Shown: positions 1 through 4,766 of the stretch, one piece after another
Layout of the letters: the number at the start of each line of letters is the position of its first letter
Numbering within the stretch: position 1 is the stretch's first letter
IMG/VR virus record: IMGVR_UViG_2778261165_000015
Length of the DNA: 4,766 nucleotides
Strand: one strand, 5' to 3'
Source: a virus
Lineage: Duplodnaviria; Heunggongvirae; Uroviricota; Caudoviricetes
Notes under the pieces: model-generated
The model's input: the letters and a program-made list of their open reading frames with translations, nothing else
What the model was told of the DNA's origin: nothing
Databases searched by the model: none
Translations under genes and position numbers: made by a program

Positions 1-110
1 TGGAGATCACTGAATAACAAAATGAGTCAAAAGTGATCTCCATCGATGTTATTCAGCGATCTGTTCAAATGTTATTACCCGATCTCGATGGAAGTTATTG
101 AGTGATCTCC
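1..110. repeat. Array of GATC-containing 15-bp repeats (consensus GTTATTnnnYGATCT): direct copies at 48-62, 71-85 and 94-108 phased at exactly 23 bp, one inverted copy at 4-18, and a 9-bp inverted repeat GGAGATCAC / GTGATCTCC at 2-10 / 33-41
   Basis: Read directly: gttattcagcgatct (48-62), gttattacccgatct (71-85), gttattgagtgatct (94-108); agatcactgaataac (4-18) is the reverse complement of the consensus. GATC at 5, 36, 58, 81 and 104. The 23-bp period is not a multiple of 3, so this is a DNA-level signal, not a protein repeat. Confidence 0.8.
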
Positions 111-1851
111 TTTCATGAAAATACGCATCTTTAGCTAACTCTGGTAATTTAGCTTGTGCTTCCATTCGTTCAGGTGTAGAAGCTAATCTCTCATAACCTG
201 CATAGATAGCACTACCAGCTAATAACATATTCATAGGGTTTAGTCTTGATGGTTTCCCATTCTTTCTATTCACGTTATCCGCTGTAGTATCAGCGACCTG
301 ACCTAATCTTGTGATAGCAGTCATAAGCCCGTAAATACTTCTGGTTACACCAACAACTTTATTCACAGCAATAACACCAGCCAAGACTTTTAAACTATTA
401 ATCAAGCCAGAACCTAAAGCATCAACAACTTTCTTTTGTTCATCGGTTAAACCACGGTAAGCCAATGTCACCTCATCAAAGAAACCTCTCACCTTGTAAG
501 AAATATCAGTCAATGAATCGACACCATGTGACATATCAGTCATCAAGCTACCAAGAGATTCACCAAGACTTTTACCACTTCCACCTAAACTGTTTAAAAG
601 CGTTGTTAGGCTTCTTGTGAAATCTTGAAGACCATTTTCAGAACCTCTGAAGATACTATCAAGCGTGGTATTCCAAGAGTTTTTCAGGTTCCCTAGTTGT
701 GCCTGAGTACTTTCTGAAATAGTTTTCCAGCCACCTTTAGCGGTGATTTGTTTATTCAGTTCCTGAGTGACCTTCTGAAGAGTATCGGCAGATTTTAAAG
801 CCCCCTTCTTCATGGCATCAAATAGCTCTTGTTCATTCCTTCCGATTGCTTTAGCGAATACCTGAACCATACCAGGAACAGCTTCAGCTAATTGCCCCTT
901 AAGCTCTTCAGCCATAACCTGACCCTTACCAGCCATCTGTGATAATGCTGTCAGTGCTCGCTTAATCTCTTCTTCACTTCTCCCCATCAGACGAGCATAG
1001 CCAATCATATTTTTAAAAAGTTCTTCAGAACCTTGAATGCCCATAGACTCTTTAGCTGAAGCACCAAAACCAGCAAACTGTGATTGCAGTTCAGCGATAT
1101 CTAAACCCGTTGTTTGAGCTAATGACTTTGTGAACTCTTTTACTTGAACTGCATCTTTATCAAATACGAAATCAATTGAACGTTCAGCACTTGCACGCTG
1201 TAAACCAATTTCCATAATCTTCTGATAACTGGCTAATACAGCCTGCATTGAGATAAATGCACCTGCTGTTTTAACTGCCGCTGAAGACAGGTTATCAAGA
1301 CTATTAGCTGCTCTGTCACCATTAATGCTGGTGGATGTATGACCTTTAGCTTTAGCAATTGCTTCTCTGACTGAAGCATTTAACTGAGCTAACTTCTCAT
1401 TGAATTTTGAAGAATCCATTGACCCAGCTTTAGCAGATAGCCCGTAAAACTGAGATTTGATGTATTTCTGCAAAATAGGGTCGAAGCCTTTCAGCTTGCT
1501 CATGTTAGCCTGATAAGCTGCTCTTACAGCTCGGTCACCAGTATTTACTCTTGGCTGTCTTGGCTGTCTAAGTGGCTTTAAAGTATCCTCAATTTCCGTT
1601 TTAATCTTAAACGCTTTAGTGTTTTTAAGACGCTGCTCAATCTTGGAAACAGTTTTATCGACATTCTTTTCCATTAGTTTGAGAGAATCATTTAAAGGCG
1701 TAGGATTCACTTTAAACGCCTTATTCAATCGCTTCTCAATTCGTGATGCTACCTGCATCGTTTGTTTCTCGGCTTTTTCCAGACCTTTTAAAACTTTCTG
1801 AGAGTTAAAACTTAACTCAATCAGAAAATCATCAACTTTAAACTGTGCCAT
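49..1851 (-). CDS. Phage tail tape measure protein, lambda gpH-like (600 aa)
   Basis: 600-aa ORF with TAA stop at 49-51. N-terminus MAQFKVDDFLIELSF resembles the lambda H N-terminus as I recall it (MAEPVGDLVVDLSL). Central segment ALTALSQMAGKGQVMAEELKGQLAEAVPGMVQVFAKAIG matches the tape-measure-domain signature from memory. Helical, Ala/Leu/Lys/Gln-rich composition and a hydrophobic C-terminal stretch fit the family. SD AAGAGGTG lies 11 nt upstream of the ATG; an in-frame TGA two codons upstream fixes the start. Not verified by search. Confidence 0.75.
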   Translation of the reverse strand: MAQFKVDDFLIELSFNSQKVLKGLEKAEKQTMQVASRIEKRLNKAFKVNPTPLNDSLKLMEKNVDKTVSKIEQRLKNTKAFKIKTEIEDTLKPLRQPRQPRVNTGDRAVRAAYQANMSKLKGFDPILQKYIKSQFYGLSAKAGSMDSSKFNEKLAQLNASVREAIAKAKGHTSTSINGDRAANSLDNLSSAAVKTAGAFISMQAVLASYQKIMEIGLQRASAERSIDFVFDKDAVQVKEFTKSLAQTTGLDIAELQSQFAGFGASAKESMGIQGSEELFKNMIGYARLMGRSEEEIKRALTALSQMAGKGQVMAEELKGQLAEAVPGMVQVFAKAIGRNEQELFDAMKKGALKSADTLQKVTQELNKQITAKGGWKTISESTQAQLGNLKNSWNTTLDSIFRGSENGLQDFTRSLTTLLNSLGGSGKSLGESLGSLMTDMSHGVDSLTDISYKVRGFFDEVTLAYRGLTDEQKKVVDALGSGLINSLKVLAGVIAVNKVVGVTRSIYGLMTAITRLGQVADTTADNVNRKNGKPSRLNPMNMLLAGSAIYAGYERLASTPERMEAQAKLPELAKDAYFHERRSLNNFHRDRVITFEQIAE

Positions 1852-1879
1852 TGTTCATATTTCACCTCTTTAAGCGTGA

Positions 1880-1934
1880 GCTACGTAAAAAATAATTTTT
1901 GGTGGGTATATCTGTTCAGAAGATTTCACGTAGC
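1880..1934 (-). promoter_or_regulatory. Imperfect 11-bp inverted repeat (GCTACGTRAAA) enclosing 33 bp, in the 5' untranslated region just upstream of the tape measure RBS
   Basis: gctacgtaaaa at 1880-1890 and tttcacgtagc at 1924-1934 (10/11 complementary). Would form an 11-bp stem with one G-U pair in the minus-strand RNA, or act as a palindromic operator in DNA. Confidence 0.4.
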
Positions 1935-1961
1935 ACATAGGATTCGATAGAAGACTATCTC

Positions 1962-2010
1962 ATATACAAAAAAGGGAGAAACTACCGATATCACTCGATA
2001 ATCTCTCCCG
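1962..2010 (-). terminator. Rho-independent terminator downstream of the 69-aa gene
   Basis: Minus-strand RNA reads GGGAGAG...UUCUCCC (stem from 1974-1979 / 2004-2009, with an inner UAUC/GAUA helix) followed immediately by UUUUUUGUAU (A-run 1968-1973 on plus). Sits ~25 nt after the stop of the 2034..2243 CDS. Confidence 0.6.
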
Positions 2011-2033
2011 TACTTTACCCAACCAATTCTTTT

Positions 2034-2243
2034 TTAATGTCTGACAAGATAATGTAGTTCCGTTTCACCTATGACTTGAGCATCAGAAGGAATACGGTCA
2101 ATACACCACTTTGGAATCTTGCGTGTTTTTGGTTTGCGTGAGGTGATAACTTGACGTTTGTTTTTAATTCTTAAGGCTGGATTGGCTTGTAACTTTAAGT
2201 TTTCACAAACAGACCGAATAGTCTCTAAACGTTCTTCAAACAT
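2034..2243 (-). CDS. Hypothetical small basic protein (69 aa)
   Basis: ORF with a strong SD (AAGAGGTG, 4-nt spacer, ATG). Lys/Arg-rich centre (RIKNKRQVITSRKPKTRKIPKW). Same frame as the upstream gene, separated by TGA and its own SD, so not a frameshift product. No family recognised. Confidence 0.6.
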   Translation of the reverse strand: MFEERLETIRSVCENLKLQANPALRIKNKRQVITSRKPKTRKIPKWCIDRIPSDAQVIGETELHYLVRH

Positions 2244-2267
2244 TAATCACCTCTTCTTAATTCATAA

Positions 2268-2978
2268 TCAAAGTGCTTTGCTGTATTTCTGAGAAATCTT
2301 AGTAAGCTGCTCAATATCAGCCTGCATAGCAATCTTCTTCTGTGATTCATATTCACTAATAATCGCTTTCATGCTATCAAGTTCTTTTTTAAGCTTTTGC
2401 TTTAACTTATCCAGCTTATCGGAGTAATGCTTAGTCAGATTAGCTTCAGCTAGCTGAAGAATCTCTTCATCTGTTTTATCAGTCATCAGAACAAATTGAC
2501 CAGAACCCCTTAATGCTTGTCTGACATCAATTAACCGGAACCCTTCAGGGATACTTTGAAGAACTTTAGGAACGTCTTCAATCGCTGTACCAAAACCATC
2601 ATTAAAGTTCCCTTCATAATAGATAAACGGGTTTGACTTAATCTCGTAAGCAATATCATATTCTGAAGGTTTCGAGGTTTCTTCGAAGTTCTTAACAGCA
2701 TCGTAAGCAATATCAAGTCTAAGACGCTGTGATTTTAAAGCTGGGTAATATTCACGCTCAAGATTAAATAGTGCTTCACTTTTGCAGATATCTGGCATTT
2801 CTTGAGGTTCAGGAGACACAAAGGTAATTTCCTTTGGTGACATCTTTAGCGATTGCTCAAGCTTAATTCTTTCATCGTGTTCTTTACGCTGAATAGCGAT
2901 AGCTGGATGTTCAGTCGTTGGTGACCAGTCACCGAAGCTATCAATCACTTTGCCATTAATGTAAATATCGTTTGTCAT
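2268..2978 (-). CDS. Hypothetical protein (236 aa) with a C-terminal coiled-coil-like region
   Basis: ORF with SD GAGG 9 nt upstream of the ATG. C-terminal ~60 residues are heptad-like and K/E/L/Q-rich (KLDKLKQKLKKELDSMKAIISEYESQKKIAMQADIEQL). No recognisable catalytic motif. Confidence 0.7.
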   Translation of the reverse strand: MTNDIYINGKVIDSFGDWSPTTEHPAIAIQRKEHDERIKLEQSLKMSPKEITFVSPEPQEMPDICKSEALFNLEREYYPALKSQRLRLDIAYDAVKNFEETSKPSEYDIAYEIKSNPFIYYEGNFNDGFGTAIEDVPKVLQSIPEGFRLIDVRQALRGSGQFVLMTDKTDEEILQLAEANLTKHYSDKLDKLKQKLKKELDSMKAIISEYESQKKIAMQADIEQLTKISQKYSKAL

Positions 2979-3003
2979 TATTTTTTTCCTCTAAGTGTGG
3001 TTA

Positions 3004-3081
3004 TTTCTTAATAGAGCACCTTCAACGCCAATACACTTAGAAGATGACTTAACGATTTATTAAAGATGCTCTATTAAGAAA
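3004..3081. repeat. Perfect 15-bp inverted repeat (TTTCTTAATAGAGCA) with arms at 3004-3018 and 3067-3081, 48-bp spacer
   Basis: Read directly; the reverse complement of 3067-3081 equals 3004-3018 exactly. Lies between hairpin H1 and the RBS of the 236-aa gene. Confidence 0.75.
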
Positions 3082-3110
3082 AGCCCTAAACATAATCTGT
3101 GAAGGGCTTT
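3071..3110 (-). terminator. Terminator-like hairpin H1 (AAAGCCCT / AGGGCTTT stem, 15-nt loop) followed by UUUUCUU on the minus strand
   Basis: Stem 3080-3087 / 3103-3110. The U-tract overlaps one arm of the 15-bp inverted repeat. Short stem, so termination is likely partial. Confidence 0.4.
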
Positions 3111-3170
3111 GAAGGTTTGCTTTATAACGTTAACGAAGTTTCAGGAAAAACTTTCTTTAAAAGCTCTGTT

Positions 3171-3209
3171 TAAAAACTCTTAAAGAAAGCCCTAATCATG
3201 AGTTAGGGC
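3171..3209 (-). terminator. Rho-independent terminator H2 (GCCCTAA / TTAGGGC stem, 7-nt loop) followed by UUUCUUUAAGAGUUUUU
   Basis: Perfect 7-bp stem at 3189-3195 / 3203-3209 with a U-rich tract on the minus strand. Shares the AAGAAA(A)GCCCTAA module with H1. Confidence 0.55.
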
Positions 3210-3255
3210 AAAGCTGTAAAGGATTCAAACGAATGAACAAAGACTTTTTGAGATA

Positions 3256-3280
3256 GCCTCTCAAGTTATATAAGAGAGGC
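3256..3280 (-). other. Stem-loop H3 (GCCTCTC / GAGAGGC, 11-nt loop) within the leader; no adjacent U-tract
   Basis: Perfect 7-bp inverted repeat read directly; flanks are not U-rich on either strand, so probably not a terminator. Confidence 0.4.
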
Positions 3281-3377
3281 CATGACGAAAAGCATTGCAC
3301 CTTTCCAACTCAGAATATCCATCCATCGGATTATTGAAAATATGATTTTAGGAAAAATTGCTCTTCCTATATATACA

Positions 3378-3406
3378 ATTATGTCATGCTCAAGGTTATT
3401 TGTCAA
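3378..3406 (-). promoter_or_regulatory. Near-consensus sigma70-type promoter: -35 TTGACA, 17-bp spacer, extended -10 TGaCATAAT
   Basis: Minus strand reads gctgTTGACAaataaccttgagcaTGaCATAATtgtatat. -35 is 6/6, spacer 17, -10 is 5/6 with a TG at -15/-14. Predicted start site near 3371, transcribing toward the terminators and the 236-aa gene. Confidence 0.55.
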
Positions 3407-3431
3407 CAGCTTTTAACAGATTGATAACAAT

Positions 3432-3497
3432 CTATACTTTAATAGACGCACCTGCAATCATACCAACCAATACAAAACAGATAATCACCAATTCCAT
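3432..3497 (-). CDS. Candidate 21-aa hydrophobic micro-protein (MELVIICFVLVGMIAGASIKV), a single predicted transmembrane helix
   Basis: Not in the supplied ORF track (too short). ATG overlaps the upstream TAA stop (TAATG). SD AAGGTGG sits 7 nt upstream. A 17-residue uninterrupted hydrophobic core is flanked by E and K. TAG stop at 3432-3434. Confidence 0.4.
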   Translation of the reverse strand: MELVIICFVLVGMIAGASIKV

Positions 3498-3820
3498 TAA
3501 TGCACCACCTTCGAATCCGTCACCAAAATATTGTCAGCGTACAAAATTGCTATAGCTGCCTTGAGATATCTTTCAGGGCTAACGCTGTATTTGTTCGTTT
3601 GCTCAATAACCAATCTTTTCATATTACTGTCTGTAATTGGTAACATCATTCGAGGCTCGTTAAACTCCACCGAGTGAATAAAGTCAGAGATGCTTTCCGC
3701 ATTATCAGCCATTAACTCTAACAACTTATCAAAGTCAATGCTAACACCTACATCAGTGAAAGCCTGAATCATCATGGCGGTGTCGGTATCAATAAAAATC
3801 TGTAGTGGGAAATTATTCAT
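3497..3820 (-). CDS. Hypothetical protein (107 aa from ATG 3820; the track's longer 144-aa form starts at 3931)
   Basis: ATG at 3820 has an AGGA SD with 8-nt spacing. The extra 37 codons upstream (3821-3931) are GC-richer with atypical codons (CCG, CTC, AGG), lack a good SD and overlap an inverted repeat, so the shorter start is preferred. No cysteines, no recognised motif. Confidence 0.55.
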   Translation of the reverse strand: MNNFPLQIFIDTDTAMMIQAFTDVGVSIDFDKLLELMADNAESISDFIHSVEFNEPRMMLPITDSNMKRLVIEQTNKYSVSPERYLKAAIAILYADNILVTDSKVVH

Positions 3821-3899
3821 TTTTAAAATCCTATAAAAACACATCTTAAATCTGCCAAAATAACCATTCTGAGGCCAGTAACCATGCGGGTTACAGAGG

Positions 3900-3946
3900 G
3901 AGTGAGACACCTTAGTAATAGGGTAGCTCATCTTTGAGTCTCACTC
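3900..3946. repeat. 9-bp inverted repeat GAGTGAGAC / GTCTCACTC with a 29-bp spacer, between the 128-aa and 107-aa genes
   Basis: 3900-3908 and 3938-3946 are exact reverse complements. No U-tract follows, so it looks like an operator or RNA structure rather than a terminator. Confidence 0.45.
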
Positions 3947-3958
3947 ATTCTCACAGAC

Positions 3959-4345
3959 TTACACAGACGCTTTAATCTTGTAGTATTGACTACGTGATAA
4001 GCCGTATTTCTCAGAAATATAACTTTGTGATTGTCCTTTGGTGATTGCATCAATGATTAAATCTTTATCGTATCTGTTACCGTTGGCTTTGTGCTTGTCA
4101 CTATTTTTAATAGAGTTGAAGTTCTCCATTAATTCAATGGCGTCTTTAAGGTCGCTTTCGTAAGCATAATCAAAACCTCTGATAAACTCGAAATCACCAT
4201 TATCTTTTTGTGCTTCAGCCCAGATATCAAATCTTGAGGCTAATTGCTGGTGGGTAAACTTGGGTTTATTGGTTTGTGTTACGTCTTTCCAGACTTTACC
4301 GTCAAATCTTACCAAATGGTCACGATGTTTATAAAAGTCATACAT
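3959..4345 (-). CDS. Hypothetical DNA-binding protein (128 aa) with a C-terminal resolvase/Hin-type helix-turn-helix
   Basis: Strong SD GGAGG 4 nt before the ATG, which overlaps the upstream stop (TAATG). C-terminus KGQSQSYISEKYGLSRSQYYKIK resembles the Hin/Gin recombinase HTH (GIGVSTLYRYF pattern). The ~95-aa N-terminal part is too short and lacks the serine-recombinase catalytic signature. Confidence 0.7.
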   Translation of the reverse strand: MYDFYKHRDHLVRFDGKVWKDVTQTNKPKFTHQQLASRFDIWAEAQKDNGDFEFIRGFDYAYESDLKDAIELMENFNSIKNSDKHKANGNRYDKDLIIDAITKGQSQSYISEKYGLSRSQYYKIKASV

Positions 4346-4581
4346 TAAACCTCCATCGCTAATTTGTGAATTTTGATACTTAGTAACCTTGCTAAATCCA
4401 GTCCAAAAGCATTTAAAGATTTCAGACTATCAAGGTCATCTTTCTTAATCCTGACATGGTGTCTTGCTGCCTCTAAACGACTATTAAGCAAATCCTGCTC
4501 GTTAATATCACGGTTAATTGCAAGCTTCATCACTGCTGAGTGCTGAGAGATCCCCTCATAATTTCCCCAAAGCGTAACCAT
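4345..4581 (-). CDS. Hypothetical protein (78 aa as drawn; start uncertain)
   Basis: ORF whose stop overlaps the start of the 128-aa gene. No convincing SD before ATG 4581 or the internal GTG/ATG at codons 17/18. The first 26 nt overlap the upstream partial ORF. Confidence 0.45.
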   Translation of the reverse strand: MVTLWGNYEGISQHSAVMKLAINRDINEQDLLNSRLEAARHHVRIKKDDLDSLKSLNAFGLDLARLLSIKIHKLAMEV

Positions 4582-4766
4582 GTGTGAATAAATTTTGAGC
4601 TAGTAGGGTTGCAGCCACGAGTAAGTCTTCCCTTGTTATTGTGTAGCCAGAATGCCGCAAAACTTCCATGCCTAAGCGAACTGTTGAGAGTACGTTTCGA
4701 TTTCTGACTGTGTTAGCCTGGAAGTGCTTGTCCCAACCTTGTTTCTGAGCATGAACGCCCGCAAGC
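4556..4766 (-). CDS. 3' end of a gene whose 5' part lies beyond the window (69 codons visible, C-terminus ...LFTHGYALGKL)
   Basis: Stop-free minus-strand frame from the window edge to TGA at 4556-4558, not in the supplied track because no start is in the window. GC content here is visibly higher (~47%) than the rest. Confidence 0.45.
   Translation of the reverse strand, partial: LAGVHAQKQGWDKHFQANTVRNRNVLSTVRLGMEVLRHSGYTITREDLLVAATLLAQNLFTHGYALGKL

Follow-up and report, generated by a model that had tools for sequence, protein, structure and literature searches.

A GATC-free integrative element tied to Felix O1-like phages and its borders with two insertion sequences

The 4,766-nt stretch of DNA analyzed here (hereafter the window; virus record IMGVR_UViG_2778261165_000015, Caudoviricetes) raises the question of why the tetranucleotide GATC is nearly missing from it and why most of the sites that it does contain are clustered. 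A preliminary description had treated the window as one piece of DNA under selection against GATC, in which the cluster was retained for a function. Judged by homology, the window is where three mobile DNAs meet, and their borders can be read from the distribution of GATC. Our confidence in this structural dissection is high. The three parts, two of which are ends of insertion sequences (ISs), are as follows:

1–127, minus strand: left, istA-proximal end of ISEc12 (IS21 family), its outermost 127 bp, with the IS body off the window to the left; the terminus ...AATACGCA ends at 127.
128–4542, no strand assigned: GATC-free core, a fragment of an 11.3–11.8 kb integrative element; 38% GC; related to Felixounavirus.
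4543–4766, minus strand: transposase-distal "inside" end of IS10/ISVsa5 (IS4 family); starts CTGAGAGATCCCC; GATC at 4549–4552.

The window contained six GATC sites, at 5–8, 35–38, 58–61, 81–84, 104–107 and 4549–4552. The preliminary description had the count right, with two of its coordinates (36 and 4548 for 35 and 4549) off by one. Its statement that GATC is nearly absent was borne out, as the expected number was 16.3 given the base composition, 15.6–15.9 under dinucleotide-preserving shuffles or a Markov model of order 1, and 20.5 under one of order 2; the probability of six or fewer sites was 0.006 (order 1) or 0.0003 (order 2). AATC, TATC and CATC were indeed abundant, with 47, 35 and 31 occurrences. 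All six GATC sites were inside the two short terminal segments that represent IS ends. The 4,415 bp between these segments (128–4542) had no GATC against 14.2 (order 1) to 17.9 (order 2) expected, with a Poisson probability of 7e-7 (order 1) to 2e-8 (order 2), and zero was reached in none of 3,000 simulations per model. A Markov-corrected comparison of the palindromic 4-mers likewise found the depletion significant, as the observed-to-expected ratio (O/E) of GATC was 0 in 128–4542 and in every full copy of the element described below, and those of the other 15 palindromes were 0.16–1.28. CGCG and GCGC were also absent from the window, where only 2–4 of each were expected, and both were present in full-length copies.

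The central segment, and only this segment, was homologous to elements found at tonB/yciI, in yecE and at wrbA/ymdF of other Escherichia coli strains. In E. coli 67-1 (L004), the homologous region was an 11.8-kb insert between tonB and yciI, and comparison with the empty tonB/yciI site of MG1655 revealed a 13-bp attachment (att) core, TCAAGGGTCATTG, at both junctions (L004:16579–16591 and 28394–28406). The same conserved gene set was present at three sites. One further strain had it at tonB/yciI too, two had it within yecE, and one had it between wrbA and ymdF. The element at each site was bounded by a different large serine integrase. Elements of this family were 11.3–11.8 kb in length and were carried by 475 of 5,426 complete E. 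coli genomes (~9%), at up to five places per genome and never on plasmids; the family was also found in Salmonella, Shigella and E. fergusonii. At tonB, the att core overlaps the start codon, and integration restores the 5' end of the gene with element DNA taking the place of the upstream promoter region. Integration might alter the regulation of tonB.

The gene order of the family was conserved: a large serine integrase, a Dit-like protein (the tube initiator), the tail tape measure protein (TMP), two small or unknown genes set off from the TMP gene by a strong terminator-like hairpin, a conserved promoter and leader, three to five further unknown genes, and a variable cargo. Encoded in the cargo region were, depending on the copy, a homing endonuclease of the HNH-AP2 type, an orphan methyltransferase of the Dam family, a small resolvase, or a replication initiator that is O-like and has iterons within its gene. 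TMP and the tube initiator were the only structural genes identified in the element by Pfam and PHROG scans. The replication initiator was recognized in one variant (L005:17117–18109), in which 2.9 copies of a 23-bp repeat lie inside the gene at 17673–17739, an arrangement that resembles that of phage lambda, whose origin is within the O gene. In other variants, this position is taken by a different 3-kb region without annotation, and no initiator was recognized in L004 or the type represented by the window. The orphan adenine methyltransferases (PF05869) were observed in L005 (18473–19135), L012 (1588–2250) and L018 (1697–2365). Some characterized PF05869 members are GATC-specific. If those of the element are too, they would have no target in the element itself or in Felixounavirus, and would have one only in host or other foreign DNA.

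Absence of GATC was a property of the whole family. We sampled ~138 kb of family DNA, including 13 other copies (L004–L008, L012, L018 and L019–L024) from at least three integration sites, and all 13 were entirely GATC-free. In L004–L008, the largest GATC-free gap was 11.6–13.2 kb and coincided with the element, with 4–5 GATC per kb in the flanks. The whole copies from metagenome contigs (L012 and L018) had no GATC, nor did the six IMG/VR copies (L019–L024) over 7.7–12.2 kb, up to the boundary; these six encode homologs of p236, an element-specific protein described below, with 58–91% identity to that of the window (58–64% in five). The preliminary description had given a GATC-targeting restriction system or Dam-linked pressure in the host as examples of the cause. 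A pressure general to the host did not hold, as the flanking E. coli DNA had ordinary numbers of sites, and a lambdoid prophage 3.6 kb away from a copy in the same genome had 42 GATC in 13 kb. Among the 16 palindromic 4-mers, only GATC was at zero in every copy. We rejected general avoidance of restriction sites, as CTAG and CGCG were merely low; in L004–L008 their O/E values were 0.20–0.49 and 0.16–0.45, respectively, and neither was ever absent.

Comparison of the copies, which were 73–89% identical over the conserved module, indicated that the avoidance is being maintained. The 23 other permutations of G, A, T and C each had 14–132 variable occurrences among copies, against none for GATC, fixed or variable, and the turnover of GATC was the lowest of all 256 4-mers. 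The codon usage was equally strict. Aspartate before a codon that begins with C was encoded by GAC in 55 of 55 cases, although GAT was used for 75% of aspartates elsewhere (p=1e-30); isoleucine after a codon that ends with G was never ATC (0/126, against 37% elsewhere; p=3e-22); and serine after xGA was never TCN (0/14; p=9e-7). Because synonymous codon choice avoids GATC absolutely, the selection must be ongoing. Together, these data showed strong and continuing purifying selection, directed at GATC, on the element family but neither on the chromosome around it nor on the neighboring temperate prophage, and they placed 128–4542 in this family of 11.3–11.8 kb site-specific integrative elements. 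The proposal of selection against GATC was, in this respect, well founded.

The GATC cluster had a different origin. Positions 1–127 were 100% identical to sequences in more than 2,000 E. coli records, both chromosomes and plasmids, with 1–14 copies per genome. In two annotated loci (L002 and L003), this sequence lay directly upstream of annotated istA and istB of ISEc12. The complete ISEc12 in L002 was bounded by TGCGTATT...AATACGCA, its left tip corresponding to window position 127, and a 5-bp ACTGC duplication was readable around it; the window holds one end of the IS only. Read from the sequence, ISEc12 has TG...CA termini with imperfect inverted repeats (left, TGCGTATTTTCATGAAAGGAGATC...; right, TGCGTATTACCGTGAAGGAGATC...). 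A motif, GGAGATC-N(4-5)-A(A/G)TAAC, was present at both ends, the left having four direct copies plus an inverted one and the right having three copies. The left-end copies are:

94–110, minus strand: terminal repeat L1, GTTATTGAGTGATCTCC on the plus strand; GATC at 104–107.
71–87, minus strand: terminal repeat L2, GTTATTACCCGATCTCG; GATC at 81–84; 23 bp from L1.
48–64, minus strand: terminal repeat L3, GTTATTCAGCGATCTGT; GATC at 58–61; 23 bp from L2.
26–41, minus strand: terminal repeat L4, degenerate, GTCAAAAGTGATCTCC; GATC at 35–38.
2–18, plus strand: inverted copy of the ISEc12 repeat, GGAGATCACTGAATAAC; GATC at 5–8.

The five clustered GATC sites are the cores of these repeats, the direct copies of which are spaced 23 bp apart. 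We know of no report on Dam methylation modulating the binding of IstA. In the IS21 family, each end consists of several direct repeats (L1/L2, R1/R2), which IstA requires (PMC10122671), and for this reason the five-fold GATC motif is most likely, by analogy, the IstA binding array of ISEc12. The ISEc12 ends agree with that family in their TG...CA termini and in having several direct repeats about two helical turns apart upstream of istA; their peculiarity is that all eight repeat copies, five left and three right, have a GATC core. Since every copy has this core, it is conceivable that Dam methylation modulates recognition of the ISEc12 ends and could couple IstA binding and transposition to replication, as it does for IS10 and IS50. 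The idea that the depleted DNA had retained the cluster for a function was thus abandoned, as the cluster is the terminal repeat array of an unrelated, GATC-rich IS (23 sites in 2,587 bp) that was inserted later. For the same reason, we dropped the notion of the window as a single entity with a functional cluster resembling an origin or pac site.

The lone GATC near the other end of the window also belongs to an IS. Positions 4543–4766 were 99.5% identical to an annotated IS10 transposase region, and the homology of relatives to the element ends at 4542. In the most similar copy (L001), PGAP annotates an ISVsa5-family transposase whose C-terminus points to the 4543 end, which identifies this as the transposase-distal "inside" end. 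The target next to 4543 is TGCTGAGTG, which is near-consensus. The GATC of the inner IS10 end, here at 4549–4552, reportedly governs the activity of that end. IS10 transposition is Dam-regulated (Roberts et al. 1985, as cited in PMC5006887 and PMC4265352). The end in the window has the same terminal CTGAGAGATCCCC as the Dam-regulated end of IS10/Tn10, with GATC a few bases from the tip and a transposase-distal position; as a copy of IS10/ISVsa5 it is ordinary. These comparisons showed that ISEc12 and IS10 were inserted secondarily into the GATC-free element and that neither IS is GATC-depleted.

The copy closest to the window, L001 (E. coli Z1323CEC0004, 2990185–3008136), was heavily colonized by other mobile DNA. 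It had an IS3-family element in the tape measure gene, an ISEc12 interrupted by another IS3-family copy, and IS10, and it was adjoined by Tn5 (IS50R, aph(3')-II, ble, aph(6)-Ic). Unlike this copy, the window has no IS3 insertion in the tape measure gene, and its ISEc12 junction is a different one.

What, then, would lead a chromosomal element to avoid GATC? The nearest phage homologs of its TMP were those of Felixounavirus, virulent myoviruses of ~86 kb. The TMP aligned end to end with that of the Felixounavirus garuso at 28% identity, and conservation of the DNA itself was seen at both edges of the gene. The Dit-like protein was 71% identical in amino acids and 79% in nucleotides to garuso_119, which directly follows the phage TMP gene, and it matched PDB 9NDY, the tube initiator of the Felixounavirus Bas63 (E 4e-113). 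In the Bas63 baseplate hub, the tube initiator sits with the tape measure protein (PMC12609058). Homologs of the tube initiator were found only in Ounavirinae, and the element version was equidistant (70–72.5%) from those of all Felixounaviruses. In addition, the HNH-AP2 cargo protein was 44% identical to an HNH protein of garuso. Relatedness to the phage was limited to these genes, as only 3 of the 19 element proteins tested matched the garuso genome, and the element, at ~12 kb, is not an Ounavirinae genome of ~85 kb with full virion, replication and lysis sets. The TMP was 679–725 residues long among the copies and 735 residues in the phage.

The base composition pointed to the same relatives. 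The garuso genome has 38.9% GC and no GATC in its 85,798 bp, where ~300 were expected; its next-lowest palindromes after GATC were CCGG (O/E of 0.41) and GGCC (0.57). Absence of GATC has been reported as a genus trait of Felix O1-like phages, such as VpaE1 and Alf5 (PMC4690856, PMC5477317). The element, with the same GC content and likewise no GATC, was shown to be evolutionarily tied to the Felix O1-like virulent myoviruses, and the avoidance is a trait peculiar to a single lineage of mobile elements and to these phage relatives. DNA identity between element and phage was restricted to the tube-initiator gene and the two TMP edges, the middle of TMP having diverged (L004; garuso 76981–77042 and 79201–80027). 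Because DNA identity is so confined, it suggests that this cassette may have been exchanged by homologous recombination with infecting phages.

Based on these observations, we propose, with a probability of about 0.62, that the element is an undescribed Felix O1-linked satellite, or a parasitic or defensive island of these phages, and that it is under the same counter-selection against GATC as its phage relatives. Our confidence in the satellite reading is moderate. Under this proposal, the element would excise, replicate and be transmitted, or act, in Felixounavirus-infected cells. Its fitness would be decided in the setting of the phage, either by rapid, under-methylated replication or by exposure to a GATC-directed activity, and any GATC would cost the element its transmission via the same GATC-directed agent that the phage faces. 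Candidate agents would be Dam/MutH cleavage of under-methylated or unmethylated GATC, GATC- or GmATC-specific restriction or degradation in recipient cells, a phage-encoded GATC-directed nuclease, or combinations of these. Deschavanne and Radman are said to have named MutH cleavage of unmethylated GATC as an avoidance mechanism in 1991. Dam-linked pressure is one classical explanation of GATC avoidance in enterobacteriophages (PMC5014478).

Several points weigh against this proposal. Engineered GATC sites in phiX174 had no obvious fitness cost, and the evolutionary forces behind the avoidance have been called unclear (PMC5014478). None of the experiments or sequencing datasets examined shows the element being excised, replicated or packaged in cells infected with Felixounavirus, and a similarity search found it in no phage record. 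No circular or packaged form was found in these data; stand-alone 11.5-kb metagenome contigs, which we considered as possible excised circles, had chromosomal flanks and no terminal overlap and were rejected as assembly breaks at att sites. Scans of the core genes against Pfam, PHROG, NCBIfam and PADLOC identified no satellite hallmark, packaging gene or known defense gene, and the replication initiator is confined to one variant that is not the type of the window. A tblastn search with E. coli MutH against the phage and eight copies found no MutH-like gene, a weak negative, with the DpnII, DpnI and Sau3AI families of GATC nucleases not screened. Lastly, gene flow from the phage could explain a GATC-free TMP-tube initiator cassette with no selection acting on the element, though not the integrase and the other genes.

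The alternatives fared less well against the same evidence. Luck in an AT-rich 4.4-kb stretch can be set aside: tetramers with G and C are scarcer in DNA of 38% GC, and CGCG and GCGC are likewise missing from the window, but the Markov expectations given above leave a probability of 7e-7 (order 1) or 2e-8 (order 2), and neither ~138 kb of family DNA nor the 85.8-kb phage has a single GATC. It is also very improbable that, in line with the preliminary description, GATC-targeting restriction by the host, or a general Dam-linked pressure, acted on the window while the cluster was kept for a function, for example as an origin or pac-type site. The depletion itself is real, and regularly spaced GATC clusters do serve such roles in oriC and in the P1 pac site; the cluster here, however, is an IS end that occurs in thousands of unrelated contexts and belongs to an IS with 23 GATC in 2.6 kb, intact element copies lack such a cluster altogether, and the host chromosome and neighboring lambdoid prophage have a normal GATC density. 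A historical accident, in which the island came from a low-GC donor that lacked Dam and restricted GATC (MboI/DpnII/Sau3AI type) and has yet to re-acquire the site, would account for its 38–40% GC against 47–52% in the flanks. One Staphylococcus and one Listeria phage record were among the TMP matches, and phages that infect low-GC bacteria commonly encode Dit-like proteins and large serine integrases. This reading is largely refuted, and we consider it highly unlikely, because copies that are 73–89% identical within Escherichia and Salmonella have had heavy turnover of other tetranucleotides without gaining one GATC, because GATC was avoided at 55 of 55 and 126 of 126 synonymous choices, and because the tail genes have their nearest relatives in Ounavirinae, which are enterobacterial phages.

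A less remote, although still unlikely, alternative is that the element is a defense island and not a satellite, does not spread with the phage, and expresses a variant TMP and tube initiator that poison Felixounavirus tail assembly, and that it is GATC-free through repeated recombination with, or recent descent from, phage DNA. The proteins of both phage-derived genes do sit together in the baseplate hub (PMC12609058), the gene edges keep a DNA identity with the phage that would permit recombination, interference with tail assembly by mobile elements is established (PMC11364771), and Pfam and PHROG scans found no packaging function. This alternative, however, leaves the integrase, p236, the other unknown genes and the cargo, which have no phage homolog, equally GATC-free with the same avoidance at the codon level, and it is not evident why a purely chromosomal, Dam-methylated defense locus should shed all of its GATC sites. 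The equidistance of the tube initiator from all Felixounaviruses (70–72.5%) indicates an old, separate lineage without recent import, and there was no PADLOC match to Tai, Tab or other systems.

The genes and signals of the GATC-free core in the window, all on the minus strand, are:

128–1851, minus strand: TMP gene; 3' end cut by ISEc12, the frame running into the IS to 49.
1974–2009, minus strand: strong terminator-like hairpin with a 15-bp stem and a T run, immediately upstream of TMP.
2034–2243, minus strand: small conserved gene, 69 residues, from the open reading frame (ORF) list; annotated in all copies.
2268–2978, minus strand: p236, conserved element-specific gene, 236 residues; PGAP label "transposase".
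2979–3406, minus strand: sigma-70 promoter and leader of ~400 nt; near-consensus TTGACA-17-CATAAT with TG, 3406->3378.
3497–3820, minus strand: conserved gene, 107 residues, from the ORF list and annotation.
3959–4345, minus strand: conserved gene, 128 residues; weak C-terminal HTH_28 match (E 0.003, below the Pfam cut-off).
4345–4542, minus strand: small gene; 5' part replaced by IS10, the frame continuing into IS10 to 4581.

The TMP of the window matched PF20155 (TMP_3) and phrog_4036. Just downstream of the hairpin at 1974–2009, which separates the 69-residue gene from the tape measure gene, is an inverted motif, GCTACGTGAAAT / ATTTACGTAGC. Because this terminator-like hairpin precedes the tape measure gene, it suggests that the two tail genes may be expressed only via read-through, antitermination or a separate, perhaps phage-dependent, promoter. 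A search for promoter-like motifs common to the intergenic regions of the element and the Felixounavirus genome found none. The leader at 2979–3406 has four or five strong hairpins and an invariant block, ATTCTGAGTTG...GAAAGGTGCAATGCTTTTCG, and was conserved in eight copies. It had no Rfam match, and an Rfam scan of the whole window returned only a chance miRNA-like hit; the leader may control the p236–TMP operon, either as a regulatory RNA or through antitermination.

Homologs of p236 were numerous (n=3,028) and were found in E. coli, Salmonella, Shigella and E. fergusonii. The protein had no match in sequence searches of Pfam, PHROG, NCBIfam, PADLOC or PDB, and its AlphaFold2 model (predicted local distance difference test score of 48) was too poor for a fold search. 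As no domain in those databases reproduces the "transposase" label given by PGAP, we did not adopt it, and it looks like a propagated misannotation. Similarly, the 69-residue gene (2034–2243) had no family match in scans of the Pfam, PHROG and NCBIfam type.

As to precedents, the element has the generic traits of a satellite: a large serine integrase, a 13-bp att core, a length of 11.3–11.8 kb, and the lack of most virion and lysis genes. The hallmarks of P4-like satellites (psu/sid/delta), of phage-inducible chromosomal islands (PICIs; alpA, pri-rep with terS/ppi), of capsid-forming PICIs (the capsid set) and of the Vibrio PICI-like elements (PLEs; the PLE core) were absent from the Pfam, PHROG, NCBIfam and PADLOC scans of the core genes, in which PLE genes were not compared directly. 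We found no paper on the element family or on a Felix O1 satellite in a literature search that lacked most subscription journals. An integrative family with a Felixounavirus-type TMP and tube initiator and absolute GATC avoidance in a Dam+ chromosome thus appears undescribed, while GATC avoidance in enterobacteriophages and Felix O1-like phages, the terminal repeats of IS21 and the Dam site of IS10 are already known.

To our knowledge, PLEs do not carry tape-measure or tube-initiator genes, unlike the element. The PLE is nonetheless the closest functional analogue: PMC6002521 describes it as a small chromosomal island with a large serine integrase, tied to a virulent myovirus rather than a temperate phage, and as being excised upon infection by that myovirus, ICP1. 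According to a preprint (bioRxiv 671271), the PLE escapes the helper-driven degradation of the host chromosome, which sets a precedent for satellites whose DNA must differ from that of the host. The only PLE-like content recognized in the element was the class of its integrase. By extension, elements of this family might be PLE-analogous satellites of Felix O1-like myoviruses, with their own TMP and tube initiator, that survive infection by mimicking the GATC-free sequence of the helper, with GATC, and hence Dam methylation, serving Felixounaviruses or the infected cell as the self/non-self mark for destroying host DNA; we regard this more specific scenario as doubtful. Tai and Tab show that mobile elements can act against tail assembly, which would fit a defensive reading of TMP and the tube initiator (PMC11364771). 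They differ in being small, unrelated tail-binding proteins, whereas the element genes are full-length homologs of phage structural proteins without a PADLOC match to either system.

These findings have some practical bearing. Felix O1-like phages, which are widely used in Salmonella typing and have been proposed for biocontrol and therapy, may have in this element the first satellite or parasitic island to be linked to them, and its presence in ~9% of complete E. coli genomes could affect their efficacy. More generally, the window illustrates that an oligonucleotide anomaly in a stretch of DNA can reflect no more than where nested mobile elements meet.

GATC avoidance in enterobacteriophages was reportedly described by McClelland in 1984 and by Deschavanne and Radman in 1991; that of coliphages has been known since 1984. 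The element resembles the avoiding enterobacteriophages (phiX174, with 0 GATC, VpaE1 and Alf5) in that GATC is absent or nearly so from unmodified DNA that is replicated in a Dam+ host, and its 39% GC and zero GATC match Felixounavirus. It differs from them in that the carrier is a small integrated element, replicated and exposed to Dam with the E. coli chromosome; the searchable literature yielded no account of an integrative element that avoids GATC in this way. A tractable 12-kb element thus obeys the same rule as an 86-kb virulent phage, and, being chromosomal, it is a much easier system in which to test the cause of GATC avoidance.

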